DNA of 22,498 nt from a virus: UHGV virus genome UHGV-1419557; one strand, 5' to 3'. The position numbers and the translations under genes were made by a program. Positions 1,038 to 22,498 of the stretch are shown here, one piece after another. Below the pieces are notes generated by a model that worked only from the letters and a program-made list of their open reading frames with translations, was not told where the DNA came from and did not search any database. The number at the start of each line of letters is the position of its first letter. The first letter of the stretch is position 1.

Positions 1038-1047
1038 TAGAAGGTAA

Positions 1048-4202: not shown

Positions 4203-4204
4203 AC

Positions 4205-4645: not shown

Positions 4646-6057
4646 CCTCGATTAATCCTATCTTTGAACCGTTCATTGAGGCGCATCGCTACAAAGTCGC
4701 CAAAGGCGGTCGAGGTAGCGGTAAATCATGGGCAATTGCGAGACTGCTTGTTGAAGCGGCGCGTCGGCAGCCAGTGCGTATTCTCTGCGCTCGTGAACTG
4801 CAAAACAGTATCAGCGATTCGGTAATCCGGCTGCTTGAAGACACCATAGAGCGTGAAGGGTATACGGCTGAGTTTGAAATTCAGCGTTCCATGATTCGTC
4901 ATCTCGGGACGAATGCTGAGTTCATGTTCTACGGCATCAAAAACAACCCGACGAAGATTAAATCGCTCGAAGGCATTGATATCTGCTGGGTGGAGGAAGC
5001 GGAAGCGGTAACGAAGGAATCATGGGATATCCTGATACCAACCATCCGCAAGCCATTTTCCGAAATATGGGTGAGCTTCAACCCGAAAAACATCCTCGAC
5101 GATACCTATCAGCGATTCGTAGTAAACCCTCCCGATGATATTTGTCTGCTGACGGTGAACTACACCGACAACCCGCACTTTCCTGAAGTTCTCCGTCTGG
5201 AGATGGAAGAGTGTAAACGCAGAAACCCGACACTGTATCGTCACATCTGGCTTGGTGAGCCAGTAAGCGCAAGTGATATGGCAATCATCAAACGTGAATG
5301 GCTTGAAGCCGCAACCGATGCGCACAAGAAACTCGGATGGAAAGCGAAAGGCGCTGTTGTCTCTGCGCATGACCCATCAGATACAGGGCCAGATGCTAAA
5401 GGTTATGCATCGCGTCACGGTTCGGTAGTTAAGCGCATTGCCGAAGGTCTGCTGATGGACATCAACGAGGGTGCTGACTGGGCTACTTCGCTGGCGATTG
5501 AAGACGGCGCTGACCATTACCTGTGGGATGGCGATGGTGTCGGTGCAGGGCTACGCAGACAGACAACGGAAGCATTCTCCGGCAAGAAAATTACCGCCAC
5601 GATGTTCAAGGGCAGCGAATCGCCATTCGATGAAGATGCTCCGTATCAGGCCGGAGCATGGGCTGATGAAGTCGTACAGGGTGACAACGTTCGCACTATT
5701 GGCGATGTATTCCGCAATAAGCGAGCGCAATTCTATTACGCGCTGGCTGACAGGCTGTATCTGACATATCGGGCGGTTGTCCACGGTGAGTATGCAGACC
5801 CCGACGACATGCTGAGCTTCGACAAAGAAGCGATAGGCGAGAAGATGCTGGAGAAACTGTTTGCAGAACTGACGCAGATTCAGCGCAAATTCAATAATAA
5901 CGGGAAACTGGAGCTTATGACTAAGGTCGAAATGAAGCAGAAGCTCGGTATCCCATCTCCTAACCTGGCTGATGCGCTGATGATGTGTATGCATTGCCCG
6001 GAGTCGGCTGCGCAACCCGACTATTCCAGTTACTCAATTCCTTGTGGTGTAGGTTGA
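4642..6057 (+). CDS. Terminase large subunit (P22/Sf6-group headful terminase)
   Basis: 471 aa; Walker A-like KGGRGSGKS near the N-terminus, nuclease-type C-terminal half. Recalled as closest to the Sf6 gp2 type. Confidence 0.95.
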   Translation: MTSINPIFEPFIEAHRYKVAKGGRGSGKSWAIARLLVEAARRQPVRILCARELQNSISDSVIRLLEDTIEREGYTAEFEIQRSMIRHLGTNAEFMFYGIKNNPTKIKSLEGIDICWVEEAEAVTKESWDILIPTIRKPFSEIWVSFNPKNILDDTYQRFVVNPPDDICLLTVNYTDNPHFPEVLRLEMEECKRRNPTLYRHIWLGEPVSASDMAIIKREWLEAATDAHKKLGWKAKGAVVSAHDPSDTGPDAKGYASRHGSVVKRIAEGLLMDINEGADWATSLAIEDGADHYLWDGDGVGAGLRRQTTEAFSGKKITATMFKGSESPFDEDAPYQAGAWADEVVQGDNVRTIGDVFRNKRAQFYYALADRLYLTYRAVVHGEYADPDDMLSFDKEAIGEKMLEKLFAELTQIQRKFNNNGKLELMTKVEMKQKLGIPSPNLADALMMCMHCPESAAQPDYSSYSIPCGVG

Positions 6058-6058
6058 T

Positions 6059-8257: not shown

Positions 8258-8347
8258 TTAACCCATAACGTGCAATGGCTGTCTTTATGAGGCCTGGCAC
8301 CCTATTGCCTTCCGATGGGCTGAACATCGAGTAAACAGGGGTAACAA

Positions 8348-9241
8348 ATGGACCAGATGGCAGAAAACACACCAGAAGTTGAAATCGAAACCGACGCGTC
8401 AGAGCAGATTCCTGATGATGTCGAACTGGCTGAAAAAGTCGAAACAGAAGATGGCAGTGAGTCCTCAGGCAATGATGCAGAGGAGGCTACTGAAACTGAT
8501 GACGACGAATCAGAACAGGAATTCTACTTTGGTGACGAAAAGCTGGATTCGCCAACCAGCGAAGATGGCGCTGAGCATGGACTGGTAAAACACCTGCGCA
8601 AGACGATTAAAGAGAAAGACCGCGAGCTGAAAGAGCTGATGCGTCAGTCTCAGAAACCCGTCGAGCAGCAGCCGGTAATCACTCAACCACCGCGAATGCC
8701 AAAACTGGATGATGAGGACATCGGTTTCGATGAAGAAATCTACCAGCAACGCATGGCTAAGTGGGCAGAGGATAATGGCAAGTACCAGCAACAGGAGATG
8801 GCTCGCAAGCAGAAGGAGCAGGAGCTTCAGGCTGCCTATCAAGAGCGATTATCCAAATATCAGCAACGTGTTAAGGCTCTCAAAGTTCCTGGCTATCAGG
8901 AAGCTGAGCAGGCCGTACTCGAGGAAATCCCCATCGAGACACAAAACGCGATCCTGTTTGAGTCAGAGAAGCCGGAAATCGTTGTTCTGGCGCTTGGTCG
9001 CAACGCTGAACTGCGCAAGCAACTGGCAGAAGCTACCAACCCCGTAGCAATTGGTCGTCTGCTGGAACGTATCGAATCGAAGGCCAGAATCATGCCAAAA
9101 GCAAAAACCACGGCAGCCACAACCCCGACGGTTAAGGGGAGCAACGGCGCAGTAATCAACAACCTCGACAAATTGAAAGCCAAGGCGCTGGAAACTGGTG
9201 ACTGGACGCCGTATTTCGCCGCTAAAAAGGCAAAAAAATAA
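8348..9241 (+). CDS. Scaffolding protein (P22 gp8 type)
   Basis: 297 aa, highly acidic N-terminus, charged helical middle, basic C-terminal helix-turn-helix-like end (KAKALETGDWTPYFAAKKAKK). Located between portal and coat. Confidence 0.8.
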   Translation: MDQMAENTPEVEIETDASEQIPDDVELAEKVETEDGSESSGNDAEEATETDDDESEQEFYFGDEKLDSPTSEDGAEHGLVKHLRKTIKEKDRELKELMRQSQKPVEQQPVITQPPRMPKLDDEDIGFDEEIYQQRMAKWAEDNGKYQQQEMARKQKEQELQAAYQERLSKYQQRVKALKVPGYQEAEQAVLEEIPIETQNAILFESEKPEIVVLALGRNAELRKQLAEATNPVAIGRLLERIESKARIMPKAKTTAATTPTVKGSNGAVINNLDKLKAKALETGDWTPYFAAKKAKK

Positions 9242-9259
9242 CCTATTGGAGCATTAAGC

Positions 9260-10513
9260 ATGGCTAACCAATTAGCAAAAGACCTTGAAATCATGTTCGA
9301 AAACTACGTTGAAGGCTTTGAGGCCGCCTGCGTAGTTTCCCGTAACGCTAAAAAATTCCGTCCCGGTGATACAGCAATGCAGCGAGCAGGTGATGTTCTG
9401 TATCGTCCGCAGCATTACCACATGAATATTGAGGAAGGCCTCGACCTCAGCAGCAAAACGCCAACAGCACTGGTTCAGCGCCTTGTTCCTTCAGTGTTCA
9501 AGGAGCCGAAAAACATTCTGTACACTCTGGATGCGCGTGAAATGCGTGATCCGGAACATAAAACTGAAGCTGGTCGCGCCGCAGGTATGCGCCTTGCTGC
9601 ACAGATTGACTCTGACCTGATTTCCATGGTCACGCAGCGTGCTACTAACGTGATCACGATGGCTGACTCAACCGCAGGTACACAGGGCCGTGATTTGTGG
9701 AACTGTGCGGCAGGTATTGATGCCACCATGACGGCGATTGGTGTACCTCAGGGTATCAACCGTCGCTCTTTCTGGAACCCCTTCAACTACAAAGACCTTG
9801 CTGGCGAGCTTGGTCACCGTGCCTATGCTCAGGGCGCAACCCTGACAGCATACGAAAAAGCGCAAATCCCTCCGGTTGCGTCCTTCGATAGCTACAAGAC
9901 CGATATTTCTGGTCGATTACCGAAAGGAAGCACTGAATCCTTGACAGTATCAGGCCAACCTGAACACAAGGTTGAAGCGAAAGATTCAAATGGTATGCCA
10001 GTTGATAACCGACAGGGGACTATTACGGTATCTGCATCTGGCTTGCAGGTTGGTGATGCGTTCACCATTGCCGGTGTGAATTCCGTACACCAGATCACAA
10101 AAGATACCACCGGTCAACCGCAGGTATTCCGTGTTCTGGCTGTTAGCGGAACTACCGTAACAATTTCTCCAAAGATTCTCCCTGTTGAAAATACTGATGT
10201 TGCGAGTCGTCCATATGCAAACGTCGATGCCAAACCGGCAGAATCAGCAGCAATCACCATTCTCAACAAGAACGCAGCACCTGCTAACCTGTTCTGGGCT
10301 GATGGTTCTGTTGAACTGATGTACGGCAAACTGGCGTTCCCAACTGGTCAGGGTCCACAGGTAATGACAGCAACCACCGAGCAGGGCGCTACGCTGATCA
10401 TGTCTTACTCCTTCGACCACATCAAAGGCGTAACCACTGCGCGTTTCACCACTCTGTACGGTTGCTCTGTACTGGTTCCTGAATATACGGGCATCGTTAT
10501 TGCTGGGCAGTAA
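9260..10513 (+). CDS. Major capsid (coat) protein (P22 gp5 type)
   Basis: 417 aa, SD ggag 8 nt upstream, directly after scaffold and followed by a strong terminator. Size and position match P22-like coat proteins. Confidence 0.9.
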   Translation: MANQLAKDLEIMFENYVEGFEAACVVSRNAKKFRPGDTAMQRAGDVLYRPQHYHMNIEEGLDLSSKTPTALVQRLVPSVFKEPKNILYTLDAREMRDPEHKTEAGRAAGMRLAAQIDSDLISMVTQRATNVITMADSTAGTQGRDLWNCAAGIDATMTAIGVPQGINRRSFWNPFNYKDLAGELGHRAYAQGATLTAYEKAQIPPVASFDSYKTDISGRLPKGSTESLTVSGQPEHKVEAKDSNGMPVDNRQGTITVSASGLQVGDAFTIAGVNSVHQITKDTTGQPQVFRVLAVSGTTVTISPKILPVENTDVASRPYANVDAKPAESAAITILNKNAAPANLFWADGSVELMYGKLAFPTGQGPQVMTATTEQGATLIMSYSFDHIKGVTTARFTTLYGCSVLVPEYTGIVIAGQ

Positions 10514-10520
10514 TTTTGGT

Positions 10521-10541
10521 GGGGCTTCGGCCCCATTTTTA
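10521..10541 (+). terminator. Intrinsic terminator/attenuator immediately after coat gene
   Basis: Perfect hairpin ggggc-ttcg-gcccc followed by ATTTTTA. Confidence 0.7.
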
Positions 10542-10554
10542 TTGGGAGAAGACA

Positions 10555-10743
10555 ATGGCACGAACAATGCTCTATAAGCCAGGCAACATGATCACCTGCG
10601 GTCAGTTTGCTGTCGATTACATCATTGTTGATGACGAAGAAGTTAAATCTCACCTGAAAAAAGGTTGGGTAAAAACTCCTGAAGAAACCGCAACGAAGCA
10701 AAAAGTGGCTAAGGCGGAAGAAGATGGCGAAAACGAAGGGTGA
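10555..10743 (+). CDS. Hypothetical small protein (62 aa)
   Basis: SD gggagaag then ATG at 10555. The longer ORF call from 10516 would start inside the terminator hairpin. Overlaps the gp4-like start by 20 nt. Confidence 0.5.
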   Translation: MARTMLYKPGNMITCGQFAVDYIIVDDEEVKSHLKKGWVKTPEETATKQKVAKAEEDGENEG

Positions 10744-11185
10744 TCTCGTTCTAAAGGCTTTACGAAAAGCCGGGCTGTATTCCAATGCCACGTTGACAGA
10801 TGCTGACCCTCAGGCAATTGAAGATGCCATTAATGACCTCGAAGACATGATGGCAGCATGGCAGGCGAAAGGTATCGAGCTTGGGTATCAGTTTGCTGAT
10901 ACAGAAAACGGCATCATGCCGTTACCTGACGATGATTCAGGCATCCCTGCATGGGCAAATGATGGCGTCGCTTTGAAACTCGCTGTGCAAGTGTGCATGG
11001 ATAACGTCATTCAGCCGTCAGACGCTCTCCTTACCGCTGCTGACAGTGCATATCAGACAATCTGTATCGCTTTAACCAAAATACCACCACTTGAGCGGCG
11101 AAATGACATGCCTCGCGGTAGTGGTAACAAAAGCGCGTTTACGTGGAATCGGTTTTACATCGAGAAAGATGATCCGAGTACGTGA
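10724..11185 (+). CDS. Head completion / packaged-DNA stabilisation protein, P22 gp4-like
   Basis: 153 aa in the position of P22 gene 4 (after coat, before gp10). Confidence 0.75.
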   Translation: MAKTKGDLVLKALRKAGLYSNATLTDADPQAIEDAINDLEDMMAAWQAKGIELGYQFADTENGIMPLPDDDSGIPAWANDGVALKLAVQVCMDNVIQPSDALLTAADSAYQTICIALTKIPPLERRNDMPRGSGNKSAFTWNRFYIEKDDPST

Positions 11186-11194
11186 GGTGAATAA

Positions 11195-12613
11195 ATGCCG
11201 ATTCAGCAACTTCCGCTTATGAAAGGTGTCGGCAAAGACTTTCGAAACGCCGACTATATCGACTATCTGCCAGTGAATATGTTGGCTACGCCCAAAGAAA
11301 TCCTGAACAGCAGCGGATATCTTCGCTCATTCCCGGGCATTGCCAAACGTTCTGATGTGAATGGTATATCGCGCGGCGTCGAGTACAACATGGCGCAGAG
11401 TGCTGTTTATCGCGTGTGTGGCGGCAAGCTGTACAAAGGAGAAAGCGAAGTCGGTGACGTCGCCGGAAGTGGTCGCGTATCAATGGCGCATGGTCGAACA
11501 TCACAGGCTGTAGGCGTTAATGGTCAACTGGTCGAGTATCGTTATGATGGCACGGTTAAAACCGTCTCAAACTGGCCTACAGACAGTGGATTCACGCAGT
11601 ATGAGTTAGGTTCAGTTCGCGACATTACTCGCTTACGTGGGCGTTATGCGTGGTCAAAAGACGGAACTGATTCATGGTTTATCACTGACCTTGAAGACGA
11701 ATCGCACCCTGACCGATACAGTGCACAATATCGCGCAGAATCGCAGCCGGACGGCATCATCGGTATCGGGACATGGCGAGACTTCATCGTCTGCTTTGGT
11801 TCATCGACTATTGAATATTTCTCCCTGACTGGCGCAACCACCGTTGGTGCTGCTTTGTATGTCGCACAGCCATCACTGATGGTGCAAAAAGGCATCGCCG
11901 GAACCTATTGCAAAACGCCATTCGCTGATTCCTATGCGTTCATCAGCAATCCGGCAACAGGTGCGCCGTCTGTATACATCATCGGTTCCGGGCAGGTGTC
12001 ACCAATCGCCAGCGCGAGCATTGAGAAAATTCTTCGCTCCTACACTGCTGATGAACTGGCTGATGGTGTGATGGAGTCTCTGCGATTTGATGCGCATGAG
12101 CTGCTGATTATCCATCTTCCGCGCCATGTCCTCGTATACGACGCATCTTCAAGCGCCAATGCTCCGCAATGGTGTGTACTGAAAACAGGTCTGTATGACG
12201 ATGTGTACCGCGCTATCGACTTCATTTACGAAGGCAATCAGATAACGTGCGGCGATAAGCTGGAGTCCGTGACCGGGAAATTGCAATTCGACATCAGCAG
12301 CCAGTACGACAAGCAACAGGAGCATCTGCTGTTTACTCCTCTGTTCAAAGCGGATAACGCCAGAGTTTTCGACCTTGAAGTTGAATCTTCAACTGGCGTT
12401 GCGCAGTACGCCGACCGCCTTTTTCTCTCTGCAACCACTGACGGCATCAATTACGGTCGTGAGCAGATGATTGAGCAGAATGAACCGTTTGTTTACGACA
12501 AACGCGTTTTGTGGAAGCGAGTCGGGCGCATCAGGAAAAATGTCGGCTTCAAATTGCGCGTTATCACGAAGTCACCTGTCACTCTGTCTGGCTGCCAGAT
12601 AAGGATCGAGTAA
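11195..12613 (+). CDS. Head completion / tail adaptor protein, P22 gp10-like
   Basis: 472 aa, the same length recalled for P22 gp10. Immediately precedes the tail needle gene with overlapping stop/start. Confidence 0.85.
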
Positions 12614-13314
12614 TGGCTGATTCGAATCTCAACACCCCTGTTATTGTGCAGGCGACGCGGCTCGATACATCAATCCTTCCACGCAATATATTCAGCCAGT
12701 CTTACCTGCTGTATGTCATTAATCAGGGGGCTGATGTCGGCGCAATTGCCGGGAAAGCAAATCAGGCTGGTCAGGGCGCTTACGATGCTCAGGTGAAAAA
12801 CGATGAACAGGATGTCGAACTGGCTGACCACGATGCAAGAATCACCGCAAACACAAAAGCGATAAATCTCCTTGAGGTCAGGTTAACAACCGCCGAAGGG
12901 AAGATAGTTGTACTGCGTAGCGATGTTGATTACTTGCTGGATGAGGTTATCGATATTCAGGCGCATCTGGTCACTGTTGACCAAAGACTGGATGGCGTAG
13001 AAAGCGATATATCTGACATTAAGAGTGATTACGTATCGAAAACCGTAACAGAATCGCAGTCTCTTGCGTCACCGCTGGATGTAAAAACATCATATTCAGT
13101 TGATGGAATTCAGGTCGTTGGAGCAAGGCAGACCGGATGGACAGCGGCCACAGGCACACCACTTCTTGGCTCATTCAACGCTAACCAGTCATACACGGTC
13201 GGCACTACGTACACACAATCCGAAGTCGCAGCTATCGCTACAGGTTTGGAGCAGGCGCGGCAGCGTATTCTGGCGCTTGAAACAGCACTTAGATTACATG
13301 GGCTGATTGACTGA
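12613..13314 (+). CDS. Tail needle protein, P22 gp26-like
   Basis: 233 aa from ATG 12613 (overlaps gp10 stop). [77 protein letters not shown]... and C-terminal [13 protein letters not shown] match recalled P22 gp26. Confidence 0.9.
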
Positions 13315-13769
13315 TGATTACATTCAAACCAACGCGAAACATCGACCTGATCGAAGCAGTAGGAAATCACCCTGACATCATCGCCGGGAGCAACAACGGT
13401 GATGGATACGACTACAAACCTGATTGCCGTTACTTTGAGGTGAACGTGCACGGTCAGTTTGGCGGCATTGTTTACTATCAGGAGATTCAGCCGCTTACAT
13501 TCGATTGCCACGCCATGTACCTGCCAGAGATTCGCGGCTTCAGCAAGGAAATAGGGCTGGCGTTCTGGCGATACATTCTGACCAACACCACCGTTCAGTG
13601 CGTCACATCATTTGCTGCACGCAAATTCCGCCACGGGCAGATGTACTGCGCAATGATTGGCCTTAAGCGTGTAGGAACCATCAAGAAATACTTCAAAGGC
13701 GTGGATGACGTGACGTTTTACAGCGCCACACGCGAAGAACTAATCGACTTCCTGAATCACGGGAGATAG
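13314..13769 (+). CDS. Virion-associated protein at the P22 gene 14 position (assignment positional only)
   Basis: 151 aa between needle and gp7, start overlapping the needle stop. No sequence motif recognised. Confidence 0.5.
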   Translation: MITFKPTRNIDLIEAVGNHPDIIAGSNNGDGYDYKPDCRYFEVNVHGQFGGIVYYQEIQPLTFDCHAMYLPEIRGFSKEIGLAFWRYILTNTTVQCVTSFAARKFRHGQMYCAMIGLKRVGTIKKYFKGVDDVTFYSATREELIDFLNHGR

Positions 13770-13771
13770 CC

Positions 13772-14464
13772 ATGTTATATGCATTTACGCTGGGCAGAAA
13801 ACTGCGCGGCGAGGAACCTTATTACCCTGAAAAAGGCGGGAAAGGTGGCAGTTCTGATAAAAGCGCAAAGTATGCAGCAGAAGCTCAGAAGTATGCCGCA
13901 GACCTGCAAAATCAGCAGTTCAACACCATCATGAACAACCTGAAGCTGTTTACTCCTCTGGCTGGGAAGTATGTCGGCAGCCTTGAGAACTTATCGTCTC
14001 TGGAAGGGCAAGGTCAGGCACTTAACCAGTATTACAACTCTCAGCAGTATAAAGACCTTGCAGGTCAGGCTCGCTATCAGAGTCTGGCGGCAGCGGAAGC
14101 AACAGGTGGATTGGGTTCCACCGCAACCAGTAATCAGTTAGCAACAATCGCACCAACGCTTGGTCAGCAATGGCTATCTGGACAAATGAACAATTACAAC
14201 AACCTGGCAAATATCGGTCTTGGCGCTCTTCAGGGGCAGGCAAACGCCGGGCAAACATATGCCAACAACATGAGTCAGATTTCACAGCAAAGCGCGGCTC
14301 TTGCAGCGGCAAACGCCAACCGACCGTCAGCATTGCAGCAGGGTGTTAGTGGTGCTGCATCCGGTGCGCTTTTGGGTGGTGGCATAGCCAGTGCTCTCGA
14401 GCTATCAACTCCGTGGGGTGCTGGTATCGGTGCTGGTCTTGGTCTGCTTGGCTCGTTGTTTTAA
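13772..14464 (+). CDS. Ejection (injection) protein, P22 gp7-like
   Basis: 230 aa, Q/N/A/G-rich low-complexity body with Gly-rich hydrophobic C-terminus. Position and composition match gp7. Confidence 0.85.
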   Translation: MLYAFTLGRKLRGEEPYYPEKGGKGGSSDKSAKYAAEAQKYAADLQNQQFNTIMNNLKLFTPLAGKYVGSLENLSSLEGQGQALNQYYNSQQYKDLAGQARYQSLAAAEATGGLGSTATSNQLATIAPTLGQQWLSGQMNNYNNLANIGLGALQGQANAGQTYANNMSQISQQSAALAAANANRPSALQQGVSGAASGALLGGGIASALELSTPWGAGIGAGLGLLGSLF

Positions 14465-14474
14465 GGGGTAATCA

Positions 14475-15926
14475 ATGGCTACGTGGCAACAGGGTATTAA
14501 TTCTGGTGGGTTTCTGGCTGGCATCGGTACGCAAAATGAGAATGCGCCAAAGGCAAGCGACATTAACGCAACGCTTGGTCTGATCCGCGAAAACAATGAA
14601 CTGGCTCGATCAGGTGCAAATAACGTTGCTCTGACAGGTCTTCGTGGTCTGGCTGGAGTTGCTGATATTTATAAGCAGCAGCAAAAGCAGGAGCGTAAAG
14701 CGGCATTCCAGAAAGGTTATGCGGATGCTTATGCGTCCGGCGACAGGGAGCAGATGCGTAATCTTATTACAGCATTCCCCGAAGAGTTTGAGGAAGTCCG
14801 TAAAGGCATGGGGTATGTCGATGACGCCCAGCGGGATGATTTTGGCAATCTGGCGCTTAAGGCTCAGGTCGCTTCGTCGCTTGGTCCGGGTGCATTTGGC
14901 AGGTTCATGATGGATAACGAAAAGGAGATGCGTCGTTTAGGTATCCCTCCAGAAACTATTGCGGAAATGCAGGTTAATGACCCGCAGGGCTTCCAGCACT
15001 TCGCAGGTAATCTGGCACTATTTTCTCTCGGTCATGAGAAGTATTTCGATATCAAAGATCAAATGGAAGGTCGGGATATTGAGCGTGGCAAGTTGGCAGA
15101 GACGATTCGCAGCAATAAAGCTGGGGAAGGTTTAAAGGCGCAAAGCATTGCTGTTAGCCGTGAAAACTCCCTGCGCACTGCTGGAGGTGCTGTTCCTGCA
15201 TCTGTTAAAGAATATCAATATTTCAACAGCCTGTCTCCAGAGCAACAAAAGACATATCTTCGTGTTCGAGGTCGTCCTGATGCTGGCGGGGAGAATGTTG
15301 TGCAACTGGCAGATGGCAGAACGGTAACGGTTGGTAGGAAGCTTCACGGCGCTGGTGCTAATGCGTTCTACGAAGGAATAGACAACGAGGGCAATATGAT
15401 TCGCGTCCCCGCCAGTTCTATTGCTGCTCCGGCTACATCGGCAGCTAATGCACAGAATTACGAAATGAAGAAAGATCTTGATGCAATTTCTGGCGCATCA
15501 ATTGACGATCTTGGCTTCATGACAGGTATTACAGGTTCTTCAGGTTCTTTTGCTCTTGGTGCAGATATTCGTAGCAGGGCATCTGGTGTTGAGGAGAGGA
15601 GGCTATACAACGCTGCACAGCGAATCATGGGCAAAATGCAAAATCAGGGGATTGCAGCAGCCCGAGATATGGGGGCATCTGGCATCAACACCGAAGCAGA
15701 GGCCAATAGGTATTTTCAGGGTATGCCAAAGCCTGATTTCTCAAGTCCTGAAGCGCTGCAACAATCAATGCGCGACATTCAGCAATATACCGACAATTAC
15801 AACCAGCAATATAACGTTAATGTTGGTAATGGCGGGAAGAAATCATCAAGGCAACAGCCAGCTACTCAGCAATCAGCAGGAGGTAGCTACACGTCAAAAT
15901 CAGGCATTCAATTTACGGTGGAATGA
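14475..15926 (+). CDS. Ejection protein, P22 gp20-like
   Basis: 483 aa following gp7; size and order match P22 gene 20. Confidence 0.85.
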
Positions 15927-17938
15927 TGAAAGTAACTGCAAATGGTAAGACATTTACCTTTCCTGATGGTACGAGCACGGAAGATATTGGGTCCGCCATT
16001 GATGAGTATTTTGCTGGTCAGTCAGCGCCAACACAACAAGGTGTTCAGCAATCGCCAGCAGACAACTCACTTGCATCAGGATATGCACAGCTTGCCACTC
16101 AGCAGAAGGAAGGACTAGATCGCTCTGCTGAGCAAGGGGCTGTTTTAGGTGCTGCAATGCGCGATGCCGTTACCGGTGAAAGCCGAATGACACCAGAAAT
16201 GGAGAGACTGCAAAATGTTGGGGCTGCCCCTGAGTTGAACTCACTAAGCATGGATGCCCTGAAGGCTGGATGGTCTCAACTTTTCGGCTCCGACGCGTCT
16301 CAGGAAAAGATTCTTCAGAGTATGGGGGCGAAATTAAGGCAGGATGAGAAGGGTAACACTATCGTTTCCCTGCCATCCGGTGATTATGCCCTGAACAAGC
16401 CAGGTTTATCACCGCAAGACCTGACTTCGTTTCTTGCTAATGCGTTAGCGTTCACACCAGCGGGCAGGGCTGGAACGGTGCTTGGTGCCATAGGGAAATC
16501 AGCTGCTACAGATTTAGCACTACAGGGTGGCACCAGCCTTGCTGGCGGAGAAGATATTGATCCTGCACAAACGGTAATTTCTGCTGGCATTGGTGGTGTT
16601 GGCAAGGGGCTGGAAAATACAGTTAGTGCGGTTTCCAGGGCTGTTCGCGGTGAGATGTCACCGGAAGCAAAGGCTGCTGTCGATTTTGCGTCGGAAAGAA
16701 ACCTGCCGTTAATGACCAGTGACACGCTGAAAGATAAAACCTTTATGCAGAGTCAGGCTCAGACATTAGGCGAAAGAGTTCCTTTTTTTGGAACCGGTAA
16801 GAATCGGCTGAATCAACAACAAGCACGAGAAAATTTAGTCAGAACATTTAGCGATGGTCTGGGTGGCATTTCTGATAAACAGCTTTATGAATCTGCGACT
16901 AAAGGGCAACAAAAATTCATTGAGGCAGCAGGAAAGCGATATAACCGCATAATTGACGCTATGGGGGATACCCCTGTCGATCTCTCAAACACGGTAAAAG
17001 CTATCGACAATCAGATTGCCGTGTTAAGCCGCCCGGGCAAATCTCAGGATAGAGCCGCGGTAAAAGTCTTGCAGCAATTTAAAGACGATATCACCAGCGG
17101 ACCCAATGACCTGCGTCTGGCGAGAGAAAACAGAACTGACCTTCGAAAGCGGTTCATGAATTCAAACGAGACTGTTGATAAAGACACGCTCCAGAAAGCC
17201 AGCGATATTGTCTACAAGGCATATACAGCGGATATGAAAAAAGCAGTATCCCAAAAACTAGGCTCAGAAGAAGCTGCCAATATGTCTAGGGTTGATCGCT
17301 CATGGGCTAGATTCAATGACATGATGAGAAGAACGCGCGTTCAAAAGGCAATAGCCAGCGGCAAGGCTACACCTGAGGATGTAACAAAACTCGTTTTTAG
17401 CCAAAACCCATCAGAACGTTCTCAGCTTTACAGGCTTCTGGATGACAATGGTAGGCAAAACGCACGAGCAGCCATAGTTCAGAATGCTGTAGATAAGGCG
17501 ACTGATCCGTCTGGAAATATTAGTGTTGAAAAGTTTATTAATGCGTTACACCGGAACAGGAAGCAATCAGCAACTTTCTTTAAAGGCGTACATGGAAAGG
17601 AACTGGACGGCGTTATTAAATACCTCAACGATACAAGACACGCGGCAAAAGCGAACGTTCAAAACTTAAATGGTCAGCAGCTTTATGGATTGTTAGTTGG
17701 TGGTGGCATCATAAACGCAGCAGTATTAGCGGGGATGCTAAAAACGGCTGCGTTTGTTGTTCCTGCTGCTGGTGTCGTAGGAGGAGCTGCGAAGGCATAC
17801 GAAAGCCCTGTTATACGAAATGCCTTGTTACGTCTGGCAAATACGCCAAAAGGTAGCACAGCATATGACAGAGCGATCAGTACGGTCACACAATCGCTCA
17901 CCAGAGTCGCACAGGCATCACAAAAAGAAGCTCAATAA
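15923..17938 (+). CDS. Ejection protein, P22 gp16-like
   Basis: 671 aa, ATGA overlap with gp20, Gly/Ala-rich hydrophobic segment near the C-terminus. Last gene of the ejection cluster. Confidence 0.85.
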
Positions 17939-17943
17939 CTGGC

Positions 17944-17972
17944 AGCCACGGATGGCTAATTTTTATTCTTTG
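17944..17972 (+). terminator. Weak intrinsic terminator after gene 16
   Basis: 5-bp stem agcca / tggct with cgga loop, followed by AATTTTTATTCTTT. Confidence 0.3.
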
Positions 17973-18306
17973 ATCTCGTCCACAGGTAAAGAAGAGCAAT
18001 GGCAAGACAGGAAACAGAGAATAGATAACCTACCTCATATGGTGCGCCAAAAAAATTAGCTATTGATACGGGCAAAAAAGCCGAAGCGATCAGAATTGAA
18101 AGGCAAAAAATAAGCCCAGTAACATAGTTTATTAAACTCTTAAATGAGAAACGTTTTGCTTGATTTACGGTCTCAGCGAGTGATCGCTTAACGATGGATA
18201 AAAGCAAATAGATGGCGACAGTAGCTAATGCCCCTTTCCACCAGTCTGGATATAGTTTTGCGACAATCAGCCCAAGGAAAACCATGATGACAGACTGAGC
18301 ATTCAC
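17956..18306 (-). CDS. Small integral membrane protein (about 4 TM helices), function unknown; candidate superinfection-exclusion-type moron
   Basis: 116 aa with four hydrophobic segments. GTG start with SD aaggagg 5 nt upstream. Convergent with gene 16, divergent from the adjacent + strand operon. AT-rich. Confidence 0.6.
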   Translation of the reverse strand: MNAQSVIMVFLGLIVAKLYPDWWKGALATVAIYLLLSIVKRSLAETVNQAKRFSFKSLINYVTGLIFCLSILIASAFLPVSIANFFGAPYEVGYLFSVSCLAIALLYLWTRSKNKN

Positions 18307-18385
18307 ACCAACCTCCTTAGTTTTGCGCAGGATACCAGATGATGTATAGGAGTGGGAGTAAAGTTAGTCGGTGATAGAACGGTGG

Positions 18386-18414
18386 TTGCATAATGATATC
18401 ACGTGACGTAAACT
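18386..18414 (+). promoter_or_regulatory. Candidate promoter for the two-gene operon, with embedded palindrome TCACGTGA
   Basis: TTGCAT (18386-18391), 17-bp spacer, TAAACT (18409-18414). Perfect 8-bp palindrome TCACGTGA (18399-18406) lies inside the spacer. Confidence 0.3.
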
Positions 18415-18481
18415 TATTGCGCATAGCGTGTATTCAATGGATGCATAGCTATTGATAATCTCCGATAAGAAGGAGGTTTGT

Positions 18482-19048
18482 ATGAGCAATGAGACTAATG
18501 GGATTGATGAAATGTTTAGCTTGAACGCTGCCAAAGCTGGAGTCGCAATAGGTTTGCTATTACAGCAAGCTTCTGCGTTCAGTTGTGAGGTGGTTGTTAC
18601 TGATAACGTTCAGCACGCTTACCATCAATCCTCATTCAGCAGTGAACGGGCTAATGATGAGCTTCATGAGGCGGTGTCTTCGATTAAAGAATTGTCTCGA
18701 ATGCTGAAATACGCTTATCGTGTTCTTGCAAACGCTACCGATGAGAATGTAGACAATGTGTTGTCTATCATTGAACCAGAAAAGTCTCGATTGATAGAGC
18801 ATCAATTGAGAGGACTTGAAGGGGCAATGAAATCGGTATTCAAAGAAGCTTCTGCTGATTTTAAAGAGATCGCAAGAGATATCTATATCGTTGTTGCTGA
18901 TGCCAGATCTGCCGTAACCAACCTGAATAGTCTTATTAAACAACGCTCATGTGTTCCGGTTGTTTTTGATAGTTCCGTAGATATGGCTGGTTTGCGTGCG
19001 CTTGCTGAGCACGGGACTCGTGTGTTTCACTCTGGTAACTTCCACTGA
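18482..19048 (+). CDS. Hypothetical protein (188 aa), first gene of a two-gene operon; candidate partner/antitoxin of the downstream YafO-like protein
   Basis: Strong SD aaggagg 6-7 nt upstream of ATG 18482. Stop is 8 nt before the next start, whose SD lies across this stop. No recognised domain. Confidence 0.65.
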   Translation: MSNETNGIDEMFSLNAAKAGVAIGLLLQQASAFSCEVVVTDNVQHAYHQSSFSSERANDELHEAVSSIKELSRMLKYAYRVLANATDENVDNVLSIIEPEKSRLIEHQLRGLEGAMKSVFKEASADFKEIARDIYIVVADARSAVTNLNSLIKQRSCVPVVFDSSVDMAGLRALAEHGTRVFHSGNFH

Positions 19049-19056
19049 GGTAAAAC

Positions 19057-19506
19057 ATGCAAGTAACCGTGGAATATAATCAGGATAGTTTTGACTATTT
19101 TTTCTCCCCGGTTTTTGTTGAGTTTCCTGATTTAAAACAAACACTTGTAGATGATTTTATCATCTACAAGTCTACGGGAACGTTGCCCAGCTATTTTGGC
19201 AGAGACACCTCTTATCATCGACCTCCTGATATTGAAGATGCAGGCCTTATGCACCTTCATTTAGCAATTGGTGAAAATAAATTTGAGCCAATAAAAAATG
19301 GCACAGATATCAGCACACCGCAAAAGTTGCAGTGGCATAAAACATCCAATACCGCTCTCGTTTATGCACAAAATCTTTTTGATGAGAACAGGTATTCATT
19401 GATTGCTCTTTTTCATCCTGTAGCTCACATGTCTGCTAACAATCATAATAGAATGAGAGTGTTAGCAGGGTATGCGAGAGACTTTAGAAACACTATGTTT
19501 GACTAA
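19057..19506 (+). CDS. YafO-family toxin-like protein (putative ribosome-dependent mRNA interferase domain)
   Basis: 149 aa. DFIIYKSTGTLPSYFGRD ... HLHLAIGEN.F.P ... ALVYAQNLFDEN.YSLIALFHPVAHMSANNHNRM ... FR parallels recalled E. coli YafO (DFISYKRDGVLPDIFGRD ... HIHLANENNPFPP ... HLVYCQGAFDEQAWLLIAILKPEPH ... DNNQM ... FR). Followed by a strong terminator. Confidence 0.6.
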   Translation: MQVTVEYNQDSFDYFFSPVFVEFPDLKQTLVDDFIIYKSTGTLPSYFGRDTSYHRPPDIEDAGLMHLHLAIGENKFEPIKNGTDISTPQKLQWHKTSNTALVYAQNLFDENRYSLIALFHPVAHMSANNHNRMRVLAGYARDFRNTMFD

Positions 19507-19530
19507 ACCCACCGTCAGGTGGGTTTTTTA
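19507..19530 (+). terminator. Intrinsic terminator after the YafO-like operon, possibly partly bidirectional
   Basis: Stem aacccacc / ggtgggtt, loop gtca, then TTTTTT. A-run upstream gives weak reverse-strand potential for the convergent ClpP-like gene. Confidence 0.7.
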
Positions 19531-19554
19531 TAAGGAGTAATCATGATTTACCCA

Positions 19555-20091
19555 TCAAACAACCCACCAGTTTGCCTGATTGGATGCCAGCCTTGCAGTT
19601 TTTATGGAATTAATTATGCCATGCTCAAGAGCCTTGTTAGCATCCAAAATGGTCGAGTCTGCTATCAGGGATGCCCACCTAATATGGGTTCCGATGTCGA
19701 TATTGAACGTCTCAACGAAGCGATCAAGATCGTTATCGAGGCATTTCCCGTACTCTCTCAATCTGGCATGGTCGGCGGCTGGGGAGGCAAAGCACCATAA
19801 TAGAGGATGTAACAGGAATCTTGATAATGGGTTTGCGAAACGTTCTGAGCCAGCCAGGAAAACGATATTAGCTATGGATTCAACATTGCTTATGTTGTGA
19901 GTTCTAACGGTAACAGGGAGTGACTTAAGAAAGTTATACGCAGTAAAGCCAGCAGCAGTTTCCCCTCCCTGACTTGATATATGGATATTTAATTCAGTTG
20001 CGCCTTGAGATAATGCGGTGAGACAGTGGTTCTGAAGTTGCCCAACAGTGGCAGTGTTAACAGGGCATAAGAAATGAATTGTGTGCAGCAT
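19555..20091 (-). CDS. Compact ClpP-like (peptidase S14 / ClpP-crotonase fold) protein, translationally coupled to mnt
   Basis: 178 aa. IHISSQGGETAAGFTAYNFLKSLPVTVRTHNISNVESIANIVFLAGSERFANPLSRFLLHP aligns by eye with ClpP [63 protein letters not shown], with the catalytic Ser and His positions conserved and a candidate Asp downstream. Start ATG overlaps mnt stop (TAATG on - strand); SD aagga upstream. Confidence 0.65.
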   Translation of the reverse strand: MLHTIHFLCPVNTATVGQLQNHCLTALSQGATELNIHISSQGGETAAGFTAYNFLKSLPVTVRTHNISNVESIANIVFLAGSERFANPLSRFLLHPLLWCFASPAADHARLREYGKCLDNDLDRFVETFNIDIGTHIRWASLIADSTILDANKALEHGIINSIKTARLASNQANWWVV

Positions 20092-20339
20092 TATTTTTCA
20101 TCCTTAGCATACATGGTCTTTAGCGTCTCAAGTAGCGCCTCTTTGAATTTATCAGCTTCTTGCTGAGCAAATGACTCAACTGACTTTGGCGACCTATCTT
20201 CATCAATCGCGGCTTGCAAAATCATGACGATCTCGGAGTTAACAGAGCGACCATTTTTTGATGCTCTGACAGCAAGAGCCTCGCGTAAAGATTCAGGGAT
20301 TCTTACCGTAGTTGGAGAAATTGACACACCCTTTGCCAT
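20091..20339 (-). CDS. mnt: Mnt repressor (ribbon-helix-helix, Arc/MetJ superfamily)
   Basis: 82 aa from ATG 20339 (- strand). NGRSVNSEIVMILQAAI motif and ...ETLKTMYAKDEK C-terminus parallel recalled P22 Mnt. Divergent from arc as in P22 immI. Confidence 0.8.
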   Translation of the reverse strand: MAKGVSISPTTVRIPESLREALAVRASKNGRSVNSEIVMILQAAIDEDRSPKSVESFAQQEADKFKEALLETLKTMYAKDEK

Positions 20340-20453
20340 ATAACACCTTTGGTATTCAATTTGATAGCAAAGTGTATGCAAAAAAATTTTGACTAGATAT
20401 ACTCACTTTGCTATCTTTTGTATTCGAAAAGAGTTGTTTGCGTGGAGGGTAAC
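20340..20453. promoter_or_regulatory. mnt-arc divergent control region (candidate Pant/Pmnt and operators)
   Basis: 12-bp inverted repeat arms GATAGCAAAGTG (20363-20374) and CACTTTGCTATC (20404-20415). Candidate Pant: TTGACT at 20389-20394, TATCTT at 20412-20417. Arc SD ggaggg at 20444-20449. Confidence 0.5.
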
Positions 20454-20606
20454 ATGGAGAAAGAAATAAGTAAGATTTTGGTAAGGATGCCGCAGTCGTT
20501 AAAGGATGCTATCGGTAGCAGGGCAAAGGAAGAGTGCAGGTCGTTTAACTCAGAGGTTATCAAGCGCCTGATAGACAGCCTGAAGAGAGAGGGGGTAACG
20601 GTGTGA
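20454..20606 (+). CDS. arc: Arc repressor (ribbon-helix-helix)
   Basis: 50 aa from ATG 20454. ECRSFNSEVIKRLIDSLKREG parallels recalled P22 Arc NGRSVNSEIYQRVMESFKKEG. Upstream of ant as in immI. Confidence 0.8.
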   Translation: MEKEISKILVRMPQSLKDAIGSRAKEECRSFNSEVIKRLIDSLKREGVTV

Positions 20607-20776
20607 TTCGCTTGGATGCAGTAGTCAAAGAGATTGCGATTACCATTTTAAGACCAAATTTTGTTCATGGCGAATCATTTGGCACGAACGAAAAATTGAG
20701 AAGAGAAAGAGTATTCAGTGGCAAGCGCACGTTTTCAGAAGTGATGCTTGATGCGGCAAAGAAATCAAAACAGTGA
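20603..20776 (+). CDS. Possible small ORF (57 aa, GTG start) in the arc-ant spacer; speculative
   Basis: GTG at 20603 overlaps the arc stop (GTGTGA) with SD-like gagggggt 7 nt upstream. Open to TGA at 20774-20776. Lys/Arg-rich product, no known domain. Confidence 0.25.
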
Positions 20777-20842
20777 AGCCCCAACTGCTGGAACAGTCAG
20801 GGCTTCGGTTGTCGGTAAATCCGTGGAGAAAAACCAACATGA
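20758..20842 (-). ncRNA. sar: Candidate sar-like antisense RNA covering the ant ribosome-binding site
   Basis: On the - strand: extended -10 TGCTATACT (complement of 20845-20853) would start transcription near the ant ATG. Hairpin (gaagccc 20775-20781 / gggcttc 20800-20806 plus inner 4-bp stem) followed on the - strand by TGTTTTGATTTCTTT acts as terminator. Predicted RNA about 70-85 nt, antisense to the ant SD and start, as for P22 sar. Confidence 0.35.
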
Positions 20843-21741
20843 ATAGTATAGCAATTTTAGAAGCAGTGAACACCTCTTACGTGCCATTCAACGGTCAGCA
20901 AATTATCACCGCCATGGCTGCCGGAGTTGCATATGTTGCGATGAAGCCAATCGTTGAAAACCTCGGAATGAGCTGGTCAACGCAGCAAACAAAACTCATG
21001 AAGCAGATTAGCAAATTCAACTGTGTTCATATGAACATGGTTGCCGCTGATGGTAAGCTTCGTAAGCTACTCTGCCTTCCTTTGAAGAAGTTAAATGGAT
21101 GGCTGTTCAGCATCAACCCTGAGAAAGTTCGTGCTGACATCCGCGATAAACTGATTCAGTACCAGGAAGAATGCTTTACTGTGCTGCATGACTACTGGAC
21201 AAAGGGAGAGGCAGCAAATGCACGGAAGAAAACATCTGTTGATGACAGGACTCCGCTTCGTGATGCTGTAAATATGCTAGTCAGCAAAAAGCATCTAATG
21301 TACCCAGAAGCTTATGCAATGATTCATCAGCGTTTCAATGTGGAAAGTATTGAAGAGCTTGATGCATCTCAGATACCACAAGCAGTAGAGTACATCCACA
21401 GGGTAGTGCTTGAAGGTGAGTTCATCGGCAAACAAGAGAAGAAAACCAACGAGCTTTCTGCAAAAGAAGCAAACAGCCTTGTATGGCTATGGGATTATGC
21501 CAACCGCTCACAGGCATTATTCCGCGAACTGTATCCGGCGCTAAAACAAATTCAATCGAACTATTCCGGCAGATGTCATGACTGCGGTTATGAGTTCTCC
21601 CGTATTATCGATATGGCGAGAGACGTTTTAATCAATCACACACGAGATGTTGATATCAATGAGCCAGACGGACCAACGAATCTTTCCGCATGGATGAGAC
21701 TTAAGAATAAAGAATTACCTCCTTCAGTACATAATTACTGA
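20839..21741 (+). CDS. ant: Antirepressor Ant
   Basis: 300 aa from ATG 20839. [57 protein letters not shown]... matches recalled P22 Ant. Follows arc and is followed by a terminator and the tailspike gene. Confidence 0.9.
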
Positions 21742-21760
21742 CAGATAACCAACGCAACGA

Positions 21761-21783
21761 CCCAGCTTCGGCTGGGTTTTTTT
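21761..21783 (+). terminator. Intrinsic terminator after ant
   Basis: cccagc-ttcg-gctggg hairpin followed by TTTTTTT. Confidence 0.75.
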
Positions 21784-21841
21784 ATGCCCAAAATTCACCG
21801 TGGCCATGCTGCGGCGATTCTTTGCATCTGGAGCAAATTAA

Positions 21842-22498
21842 ATGACAGACATTACAGCCAATGTGATTGTATCGATGCCTTCGCAACTCTTCACTATGGC
21901 GCGTTCTTTTAAAGCCGTAGCCAATGGCAAAATTTATATCGGTAAAATTGACACTGACCCGGTAAATCCTGAAAACCGGATTCAGGTTTATGTAGAGAAC
22001 GAAGACGGCTCTCACGTTCCTGTTTCGCAACCAATCATCATTAACGCTGCTGGTTACCCTGTATATAACGGACGGATTGCCAAGTTCGTAACTGTGCAAG
22101 GCCATTCTATGGCTGTGTACGATGCGTATGGCGTACAGCAGTTCTATTTCCAGAATGTGCTGAAGTATGATCCTGATCAACTACGGCAGCAATTAGAAGA
22201 CCCAGATGGAGCGAATAAATACCCAAAACTTCAGATAGCAAGATGGAGAGACAGTTATGATGTAAGAGGTTGGGGGGCTATTGGTGATGGTGTTCATGAT
22301 GATACATCAGCTCTATCAGAATTACTTTCTGTTGCAACAGGTGGTGAAAAGATAGATGGGCGAGGGCTTACTTTTAAAGTATCAACTCTTCCAGATGTCA
22401 GTCGATTTAAAAATGCTCGTTTTTTATTTGAGAGAATACCGGGTGGATTTGCCCCTATATTTCCAGACACCTGTTATCACTTAACCCATTACTGGCTT
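21842..22498 (+). CDS. Tailspike protein, 3-prime partial: P22 gp9-type head-binding domain followed by a different receptor-binding domain
   Basis: SD ggag 8 nt upstream of ATG 21842. First ~115 aa ([59 protein letters not shown]...VLKYDPDQ) match recalled P22 tailspike N-terminus. Downstream [15 protein letters not shown] is a pectate-lyase-superfamily beta-helix entry motif. Open to window end. Confidence 0.9.

Follow-up and report, generated by a model that had tools for sequence, protein, structure and literature searches.

Genes and signals between gene 16 and mnt

In the window, meaning the whole 22,498-nucleotide stretch of virus genome UHGV-1419557 analysed here, four intact genes are found between gene 16 and mnt (17956-20091). 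These are a membrane ORF, orf188, a YafO-family gene and a ClpP-like gene. The first-pass annotation had claimed four genes at this place, between the last ejection gene and immI, and the coordinates it gave were correct. The features of the interval and its surroundings are as follows.

End at 17938: gene 16 (last DNA-ejection gene), left limit of the interval
17944..17957, plus strand: weak hairpin and T-run between the convergent gene 16 and membrane ORF, from a pattern scan
17956..18306, minus strand: membrane ORF, 116 aa, four predicted hydrophobic helices, GTG start at 18306
18304..18337, minus strand: sieA-type leader, Shine-Dalgarno and GTG (TGGTATCCTGCGCAAAACTAAGGAGGTTGGTGTG), 34 nt, conserved upstream of P22 sieA
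18372..18430, plus strand: upstream block of the orf188-yafO cassette, conserved with locus L009
18482..19048, plus strand: orf188, 188 aa, all-helical, directly upstream of the YafO-family gene, putative antitoxin
19057..19506, plus strand: YafO-family toxin gene (PF13957, BECR-fold mRNA endonuclease family), 149 aa, Pfam E = 3.4e-22
19505..19532, plus strand: intrinsic terminator of the orf188-yafO cassette, hairpin 19505-19526 (-14.9 kcal/mol), then U6
19555..20091, minus strand: ClpP-like gene, N-terminally truncated ClpP paralogue, 178 aa, Pfam CLP_protease E = 2.2e-11
20091..20339, minus strand: mnt, for a ribbon-helix-helix repressor (Arc/Mnt), at the head of the mnt-ClpP-like operon, given for context, Pfam Arc E = 1.4e-10
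20091-20093: mnt stop codon, right limit of the interval
20772..20838, minus strand: immI sar antisense RNA (Rfam RF00262, score of 83.9 bits where the gathering score is 43)

The whole element is present with 100% identity in E. coli S88, APEC O1 and ATCC 11775, and outside the interval it is 99.5% identical to CUS-3. The presence of the sar antisense RNA indicates that immI is complete. The window Mnt is 36% identical to P22 Mnt (E = 7e-14).

The interval has a GC content of 42.0%, compared with 49.6% for positions 1-17939, and only 2.8% of the windows of equal size have a GC content as low. The drop starts already within gene 16 (47.6%), and the DNA from 20091 to 22498, with immI and the tailspike, has 43.3%. 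Because this downstream DNA is similarly AT-rich, base composition does not set a right edge, and the proposed AT-rich island stands out against its left side, but not against its right side.

The first-pass annotation had also proposed three transcription units, with promoter and terminator signals of their own. The strong terminator at 19505-19526, the conserved sieA leader and the conserved block at 18372-18430 speak for such units. However, the hairpin on the gene 16 side is weak, the consensus promoter scan is at chance level (6 sites, against 6.8 expected in shuffled sequence), and the ClpP-like gene belongs to the mnt operon. The weak hairpin (17944..17957, -5.7 kcal/mol, z = -0.7) is no better than shuffled sequence, and may be a terminator. 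For promoters it is conservation that points to candidates, namely the sieA leader and the 18372-18430 block. The mnt stop codon and the ATG of the ClpP-like gene overlap in TAATG (20089-20093), with one base common to both, which places the ClpP-like gene in the mnt operon without a promoter of its own, and suggests that it is translationally coupled to mnt. It is part of the mnt operon of immI and does not stand as a unit by itself.

The orf188-yafO cassette

The YafO-family gene starts 8 nt past orf188. Its product scores 78.9 bits against PF13957 (cut-off 25), but misses the equivalog of E. coli YafO (NCBIfam PRK09885) with 79 bits against a cut-off of 153. It is 36% identical to K-12 YafO, with His66, His68, His124 and 16 further residues invariant.

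The pairing of the two genes is tight. An orf188-family gene lies 3-12 nt 5' of a PF13957 gene in nine of nine contexts, down to 19% identity. All nine are phage or prophage contexts (the window, HK639 and L007-L014, with L011-13 taken as one). The order of PF_YafO systems is antitoxin then toxin (PMC11980606), and all nine contexts, the window among them, have this same order of partner, then toxin. Identity to HK639 is 38% for orf188 and 59.5% for the toxin, and identity to L009 is 55% and 83%, respectively, which suggests that orf188 evolves faster than the toxin. It is nevertheless under purifying selection (dN/dS 0.14). The upstream block is conserved with L009 despite the low identity of the orf188 proteins, and contains a candidate promoter, read by eye and not flagged by the consensus scan: TTGCAT (18386-18391), a 17-nt spacer and TAAACT (18409-18414). 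At the other end of the cassette, the terminator hairpin is followed on the minus-strand side by just UUU. Position 19505 is the exact start of homology with phages EC.P3, phiv205-1, PhiR12 and Emek, so that the terminator appears to be a mosaic boundary as well.

The orf188 family is tiny, with 6 clusters in 5.8 billion proteins and 24 representatives in 1.84 billion. Pfam, PDB and fold searches with the protein gave no match, nothing consistent came from scanning 22 members of the family against Pfam, and neither a recognisable DNA-binding domain nor an alignment to YafN was found. A Foldseek search against the PDB returned generic helical bundles only (best E = 0.06), and a fold assignment was dropped. 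A lipoprotein assignment was also rejected: a lipobox fits at Cys35, but the -1 residue in the relatives is His, Pro or Asn. The C-terminal motif is conserved, and predicted to be disordered in isolation.

We consider orf188 the putative antitoxin of the YafO-family RNase toxin, and the two genes a candidate toxin-antitoxin module. Judged by its sequence and gene order, orf188 would be a new, previously undescribed partner family for a YafO-class toxin. It is possible, though unlikely, that orf188 is instead an envelope protein, either exported or anchored in the membrane, such as an exclusion factor, with the YafO-like protein otherwise controlled or non-toxic. The N-termini of the family carry a short hydrophobic stretch (9-residue Kyte-Doolittle maxima of 1.7-2.8), which in distant members (P0015-P0021 and P0025-P0028) takes the form of a classical n-h-c Sec-signal-like N-terminus. 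In the window protein, AGVAIGLLL is followed by an ASA|F site, and the AlphaFold2 model (mean pLDDT 70) has a separate N-terminal helix, then a disordered linker. A signal-peptide-like N-terminus would be odd for a cytoplasmic antitoxin. However, from the start codon with a strong Shine-Dalgarno sequence the protein gains the acidic extension MSNETNGIDE at its N-terminus, which would disfavour Sec targeting, and GLLxQQ within the hydrophobic stretch is kept where overall identity is 30%, something not usual in signal peptides. Furthermore, the tight coupling with the toxin gene and the faster evolution of the partner fit an antitoxin, and there is no further ORF that could be a candidate antitoxin.

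As a toxin-antitoxin module, orf188-YafO would stabilise the prophage or kill superinfected cells. Our literature search for a phage-defence role of YafO found nothing specific. The cassette travels among podoviruses and siphoviruses.

Assortment of the modules and possible functions

All four genes, and indeed the entire interval, are conserved together at 100% in 51 complete E. coli genomes. Yet the modules are also found apart from each other. The membrane ORF, the orf188-YafO and the ClpP-like modules occur in 229, 56 and 128 of 5426 E. coli genomes, respectively. The toxin cassette is present in L007, L009, L014 and HK639, where the ClpP-like gene and the membrane ORF are both missing, and the ClpP-like gene without the toxin cassette in L004, L005 and most of 45 viral loci. 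L051 has the membrane ORF and the ClpP-like gene, with the toxin cassette absent, and L039 is another of the loci in which the modules assort independently. The single cargo block of the first-pass annotation thus dissolves into modules that differ in their combinations.

The modules assort independently, and this is shown by the data, as are the gene structures, the homologies, the shared leader, the conserved synteny and the purifying selection. Taken together, the interval is probably a junction at which a CUS-3-like prophage of the P22 type, from K1/ST95 E. coli, carries accessory genes, in three separately exchangeable cassettes that are candidates for lysogen functions. All four genes are uncharacterised candidates for functions expressed in the lysogen. 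We infer transcription in lysogens, toxicity and its neutralisation, a membrane location, and a role in exclusion, defence or proteolysis. The locus lies in well-studied pathogens, the neonatal-meningitis strain S88 and the avian pathogenic APEC O1, as well as in the E. coli type strain, where the annotation of its genes has so far not gone beyond hypothetical, YafO or ClpP.

A cargo of defence or exclusion genes, as initially proposed, is plausible. The small membrane protein and the toxin, which comes from a known toxin-antitoxin family, fit this proposal, but PADLOC gave no convincing match to a defence model. In PADLOC-DB v2, the membrane ORF, YafO-like and ClpP-like proteins had no match at E <=1 and orf188 had a spurious ZorA match alone (E = 0.004), and a known defence system was dropped as an assignment.

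The junction could also be imagined as a three-layer, lysogen-expressed protection locus, composed of an orf188-YafO abortive-infection module, an mnt-coupled ClpP and a sieA-socket protein, although we regard this more elaborate reading as doubtful. Here, orf188 would be membrane-associated via its hydrophobic N-terminus and would restrain the RNase via its C-terminal motif, and the RNase would be released once a superinfecting phage disturbs the envelope. In lysogens, the truncated ClpP would join host ClpP in mixed assemblies and adjust proteolysis by ClpXP/ClpAP.

Quite improbable is a single integrated defence system, in which the membrane protein senses infection and the ClpP-like protein breaks down orf188, so that the YafO-type RNase is set free and makes the infection abortive. 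The joint conservation of the four adjacent genes would suit such a system, and proteolysis is the classical control of antitoxins in type II toxin-antitoxin systems. Furthermore, orf188-YafO adjoins an mnt/arc/ant module in unrelated phages (L007, L008, L009 and L014). However, the toxin cassette on its own, the ClpP-like gene without it, the pairing in L051 and the unequal genome counts all argue against an obligate unit. So do the more distant relatives of the ClpP-like gene, which are lone genes on the opposite strand, adjoining lysis genes.

Comparison with known phage and bacterial systems

Each reference phage compared differs from the window at the gene 16-mnt interval. The interval is empty in Sf6, and contains hkcB and hkcC in HK620, sieA followed by orf59a-mnt in P22, and hkcB, two hypothetical genes and two mnt genes in CUS-3 (strain RS218). 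The hkcB genes of HK620 and CUS-3 and their neighbours are alternative occupants of the interval, with no sequence similarity to the window genes.

What is shared with these phages is the leader. An identical copy of its 22-nt core is found upstream of P22 sieA (L032, 2329-2350), the core is present in 31 of 113 loci, and hkcB of HK620 is preceded by the leader within 2 mismatches. Among the fetched loci, at least 8 products that are unrelated to each other follow the leader (<=2 mismatches), and 7 of these have hydrophobic segments. In other phages, the same slot has a SieA-like gene or a toxin-antitoxin pair of the SocA/Panacea type. This suggests that the leader is an exchange junction, or “expression socket”, which takes unrelated genes. 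Since phages seem to swap unrelated small membrane proteins there, the socket could serve as a catalogue of candidate exclusion factors.

The membrane ORF occupies this socket, which bears out the earlier placement at the sieA position. It has AAGGAGG 5 nt 5' of its GTG; the RefSeq start differs (ATG 18285, product of 109 aa). The ORF and gene 16 converge with 17 nt between them, and the relatives of the ORF, a narrow enterobacterial family, are always convergent with a P22_gp16 gene, with a gap of 17-19 nt. Furthermore, its allele co-varies with the gp16 allele. A Kyte-Doolittle scan gives four hydrophobic segments, and AlphaFold2 gives four helices of low confidence (pLDDT 57, pTM 0.30), a model too poor for a fold search. 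Neither Pfam nor PHROG yielded a match.

P22 SieA (Leavitt et al. 2024, PMC10883804) is, like the membrane ORF, convergent with gene 16 across a gap of about 20 nt and borne by a P22-like prophage. P22 SieA is a small polytopic membrane protein, which the product of the membrane ORF is predicted to be as well, and both genes have the identical 22-nt core of leader, Shine-Dalgarno and GTG. It is nonetheless very unlikely that the membrane ORF belongs to the SieA family as a divergent member. The position, leader, start codon and several predicted membrane helices would agree with such a relationship, but BLASTP against P22 SieA gave nothing significant (best E = 0.29 over 32 residues), the protein is shorter (116 aa compared with 164 aa), and the FxRYPxEAxxFNK motif common to SieA types A-C (PMC10883804) is absent from its sequence. 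There was also no similarity to HkcB of HK620 or CUS-3. A canonical sieA is not present in the interval, so that the result named in the first-pass annotation as its refutation, an alignment to a locus of this kind, did not arise, and an identity with sieA or hkcB was ruled out for lack of sequence similarity. Since leader, Shine-Dalgarno and GTG are the same as for P22 sieA, the membrane ORF is best viewed as a positional and regulatory analogue of SieA. Its product would be located in the inner membrane, made in the lysogen and most likely directed against the delivery of incoming phage DNA.

The orf188-YafO cassette resembles K-12 YafN-YafO (PMC2814082, PMC11980606) in a toxin of the same Pfam family, with conserved histidines and the partner gene directly upstream. 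In contrast to the 97-aa Phd/YefM-type YafN, the partner here is a 188-aa all-helical protein without similarity to it. Moreover, the K-12 pair belongs to the dinB operon, whereas orf188-YafO is phage-borne at accessory-gene (“moron”) sites.

The ClpP-like protein matched 62 ClpP sequences in the PDB, and its closest solved relative is PpClpP1 (PDB 9UXT, E = 1.6e-35 over residues 3-175). It begins at approximately precursor residue 38 of E. coli ClpP, leaving the N-terminal axial-loop region without a counterpart. Ser72 and His95 are invariant, while the triad Asp is absent: the column of ClpP Asp171 has Ser here, and either Ser or Ala in the family as a whole. Each of the 45 close viral copies (>=80% identity) follows a Mnt-type gene, lambda-like siphoviruses included, and the Mnt alleles preceding them are 36-100% identical to the window Mnt. 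In phiv205-1, the annotation is that of a prohead (head-maturation) protease. A match to “head maturation protease” (PHROG phrog_94, E = 7e-21) and a weak one to Clp_rel_HeadMat of NCBIfam agree with this annotation, but it is almost certainly wrong for this gene, since NCBIfam NF045542 reaches 49 bits where the cut-off is 120, the phage database has true head proteases at <=30% identity only, the gene is mnt-coupled in immI on the strand opposite to the late operon, its distant relatives stand alone beside lysis genes, and P22 heads are assembled without a protease.

PpClpP1, of Pseudomonas plecoglossicida, forms a tetradecamer with low intrinsic activity, does not bind ClpX, and enters a hetero-complex with canonical ClpP (PMC12900304). 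Both proteins have a length of about 180 aa, lack the axial-loop region, keep Ser and His, and have a residue other than Asp at the third triad position (Ser in the ClpP-like protein, Pro in PpClpP1). PpClpP1 differs in being encoded on the chromosome, at a syntenic place in the P. putida group, whereas the window gene is phage cargo in the mnt operon. A prophage origin of PpClpP1 was ruled out: orthologues with 80-99% identity occur in the 80 genomes listed, which are Pseudomonas with few exceptions, and a comparison of seven loci showed a mostly syntenic upstream flank. Because PpClpP1 is chromosomal and not a phage gene, the transfer of its function is uncertain. By homology, the ClpP-like protein probably forms tetradecamers of low activity without ClpX binding of its own, and may co-assemble with host ClpP. 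Our search of the literature on prophage ClpP accessory genes found nothing specific. This phage-borne branch of an unusual truncated ClpP family, under a lysogeny-maintenance promoter, could link prophages to host proteolysis.

In P22, the corresponding place is taken by orf59a, which also comes second in the leftward mnt transcript, 5' of the terminator of that operon. It encodes an unrelated 59-aa hypothetical protein, in contrast to the 178-aa ClpP paralogue. In the orf59a position, and coupled to the mnt stop codon, the ClpP-like gene should be expressed whenever Mnt is made, i.e., in lysogens. The sieA socket, the orf188-YafO cassette and the truncated ClpP each extend a known category, and none of them is a new one.

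A mosaic between gene 16 and mnt

The window represents the late region of a Lederbergvirus (P22-like) prophage; it shows 99.5% identity to CUS-3 across 69% of its length. Segment 17900-20400 is 100% identical in the prophage of E. coli S88, APEC O1, ATCC 11775 and many other ST95/K1 strains. The interval between gene 16 and mnt is not one island, but a three-part mosaic: a membrane ORF, a toxin cassette and a ClpP-like gene.

Features of the region (coordinates, strand, feature)
15923-17938, +, gene 16
17956-18306, -, membrane ORF
18482-19048, +, orf188
19057-19506, +, YafO-family gene
19555-20091, -, ClpP-like gene
20091-20339, -, mnt
20454-20606, +, arc
20772-20838, -, sar RNA (Rfam RF00262, 83.9 bits)
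20839-21741, +, ant
beyond 21741, +, tailspike gene, aligning with the CUS-3 endosialidase gene

The sar antisense RNA lies directly upstream of ant and overlaps the 3' part of a 57-codon ORF (20603-20776). With this RNA present at full length, immI is complete and P22-like.

The first-pass annotation described the interval as a single AT-rich island of four genes, in three transcription units with their own signals. The observation was largely correct, and its coordinates and gene count are right. The single island does not hold, since one part belongs to the mnt operon and the modules are also found separately. The GC content is indeed low (42.0% vs 49.6% upstream), as low as in only 2.8% of equal-sized windows, but the immI/tailspike DNA to the right has 43.3% GC, and the fall starts already within gene 16. 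Composition therefore marks the transition from late to accessory genes, rather than a bounded island. Of the proposed signals, one hairpin, at 19505-19526, has a strong fold (-14.9 kcal/mol), with U6 after it on the + strand and only UUU on the - strand. In contrast, the hairpin 3' of gene 16 folds no better than shuffled sequence, and a consensus promoter scan gave matches at chance level. No match to a known defence system was found among the interval's genes, whose functions we infer.

The membrane gene and the toxin cassette

For the membrane ORF, GTG 18306 is the most likely start codon, preceded at 5 nt by AAGGAGG; RefSeq places the start at an ATG further downstream. Its leader comprises the 34 nt up to and including this GTG (18304-18337, - strand). 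A 22-nt core is identical to the P22 sieA leader (locus L032, 2329-2350), and these common expression signals confirm the first-pass placement at the sieA position. Of the first 113 loci collected, 31 have the exact core. Allowing up to two mismatches, 38 such leaders, or sockets, precede 19 distinct products from at least eight unrelated families. They include proteins of 62 aa and 75 aa, each with two transmembrane segments, a 109-aa HkcB type, the 116-aa type of the window with four transmembrane segments, a 129-aa secreted type, a 149-aa anchored type, P22 SieA, and one soluble 140-aa protein.

Among the socket products, only SieA has a demonstrated function. It is an inner-membrane block of DNA injection, which targets ejection proteins (PMC10883804). 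By sequence, the window protein resembles neither SieA nor HkcB, and the SieA motif FxRYPxEAxxFNK (PMC10883804) is absent from it. Its family is narrow and enterobacterial, and the ORF, always 17-19 nt from the P22_gp16 gene, co-varies with the gp16 allele. Position, common expression signals and predicted membrane location suggest that this protein may have a role in exclusion.

The membrane ORF and orf188 are divergent, and their translation-initiation regions nearly mirror each other, forming a 16-nt inverted repeat (88% complementary) between 18303-18318 (AAGGAGGTTGGTGTGA) and 18470-18485 (AAGGAGGTTTGTATGA). This could be due to chance, or to a common origin of both cassette junctions.

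The YafO-family protein matches PF13957 (E = 3.4e-22), with a score below the NCBI equivalog cut-off. It is 36% identical to K-12 YafO and keeps all residues invariant across an eight-sequence alignment. PF_YafO toxins are BECR-fold mRNA endonucleases, encoded in the order antitoxin, then toxin (PMC11980606). Upstream, orf188 encodes an all-helical protein without Pfam, PDB or fold match, which we infer to be the antitoxin; its identity with yafN was ruled out by sequence comparison. The orf188 family is tiny (6 clusters in 5.8 billion proteins, 24 representatives in 1.84 billion). Nine contexts were inspected, with family members down to 19% identity; in each, an orf188-family gene precedes a PF13957 gene by 3-12 nt. 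All nine are in phage DNA: in the gene 16-mnt slot of P22-like prophages, in gaps of siphovirus tail operons (HK639, L011-L013, L014), or beside an integrase (L010). Both genes are under purifying selection, with orf188 diverging faster than the toxin (38% vs 59.5% identity for HK639, 55% vs 83% for L009).

The cassette is delimited by the sieA leader on the left and by the terminator hairpin on the right, where homology to other phages begins. An upstream block (18372-18430), holding TTGCAT-17-TAAACT, shows stronger conservation with L009 than the coding sequence does. Within orf188, conservation is highest in an N-terminal GLLxQQ helix and a C-terminal motif, F.S.IDM.GLR.LA.HGT..F.SG.FH. The low confidence of this motif in the monomer model is as would be expected from partner-induced folding. 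Alternatively, orf188 could be an exported or membrane-anchored partner, as suggested by its hydrophobic N-terminal stretch, which is signal-peptide-like, clearly so in distant members. The putative antitoxin-toxin cassette adjoins an immI-type module (mnt/arc/ant) in the otherwise unrelated phages L007, L008, L009 and L014, one of which carries both within a siphovirus tail operon. This may reflect hitch-hiking or a functional link.

A truncated ClpP paralogue coupled to mnt

The stop codon of mnt and the ATG of the ClpP-like gene overlap by one A (TAATG), and AAGGA is found 9 nt upstream of this ATG. The ClpP-like gene is therefore no separate unit, but the second cistron in the mnt operon. 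The nearest solved structure is ClpP1 of Pseudomonas plecoglossicida (PpClpP1; PDB 9UXT, E = 1.6e-35), and what the phage protein may do is suggested by this relative only. PpClpP1 is without N-terminal axial loops, has a Ser-His-Pro triad, low peptidase activity and no ClpX binding, and forms with canonical ClpP a more active hetero-tetradecamer (PMC12900304). Both proteins have this truncation, and Ser72 and His95 are invariant, whereas the Asp171 column holds Ser in the window protein and the triad Pro in PpClpP1. The phage family has a conserved C-terminal NWWV (Trp175, Trp176, Val177), without counterpart in E. coli ClpP.

A prophage origin of PpClpP1 itself was ruled out, as the gene is chromosomal and syntenic throughout the P. 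putida group. Its orthologues (L114-L193) are 80-99% identical in the 80 genomes listed, nearly all Pseudomonas; comparison of seven loci with L114 showed a mostly conserved upstream and a variable downstream flank. The truncated ClpP family thus has chromosomal and phage-borne branches.

In a curated phage database, only six records matched, at 98% identity; the next were true head proteases, at most 30% identical. From 124 confirmed matches, 80 viral-contig loci were kept. There, all 45 copies with at least 80% identity directly follow an Mnt-type gene, whose allele is 36-100% identical to the window Mnt; most of these ClpP-like genes are 94-100% identical (L074, 80%). Lambda-like siphoviruses account for ten of the 45, with the whole ant-arc-mnt-ClpP-like module between tail genes. 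The 54-kb siphovirus PhiR12_1 (L004, PV340549.1) carries it in full at 2525-4537, between the lambda-type tail genes L and K. Most copies in the 52-75% identity range stand alone on the other strand next to Rz/lysozyme lysis genes, where accessory ("moron") genes are typically found. Together, the lone and the mnt-linked copies indicate a mobile accessory gene, which in this clade depends on the mnt promoter.

In E. coli E10 (L003, NZ_CP104533.1; 3709-4922), an IS3-family element sits exactly between mnt and the ClpP-like gene, likewise in FY26 and NCTC11151. By breaking the TAATG coupling, the insertion makes these strains natural uncoupling mutants; the annotated ClpP-like ORF is extended to 570 nt.

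Module assortment and reference phages

The modules recur in different combinations. In L007 the toxin cassette abuts mnt, with no ClpP-like gene and another socket occupant; L004 and L005 combine mnt-ClpP-like with different cargo; L039 has the toxin cassette with another gp16 allele and without the membrane ORF; and L051 carries both the membrane ORF and a ClpP-like gene, with a P63C-domain gene instead of the toxin cassette. Elsewhere, the inner slot holds a SocA/Panacea antitoxin and a downstream partner. This antitoxin gene (PF13274, E = 2e-24) is just downstream of the ClpP-like gene in the viral contigs L040, L055-L057, L059, L068 and L070, and its overlapping 139-aa partner has a weak PADLOC match to NsnC (E = 9e-6). 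The pair is a different toxin-antitoxin cassette at the same slot. Some loci have, next to gene 16, a SieA-like gene with 28% identity to P22 SieA. Of 5426 complete E. coli genomes, 51 have the whole interval; taken singly, the membrane gene occurs in 229, the ClpP-like gene in 128 and the toxin cassette in 56.

No two of the reference phages examined have the same gene 16-mnt interval, and the window cargo matches none of them. In Sf6, the tailspike gene directly follows gene 16, and HK620 carries hkcB, hkcC and immI remnants. P22 has sieA under its own promoter, then an mnt-orf59a operon, with orf59a in the slot of the ClpP-like gene. In CUS-3 of strain RS218 (L001, CP000711.1; 18361-20282), two tandem mnt genes and three unrelated genes, hkcB and two hypothetical ones, stand in place of the window cargo. 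At this locus, then, the S88/APEC O1 prophage represents a CUS-3 variant of its own.
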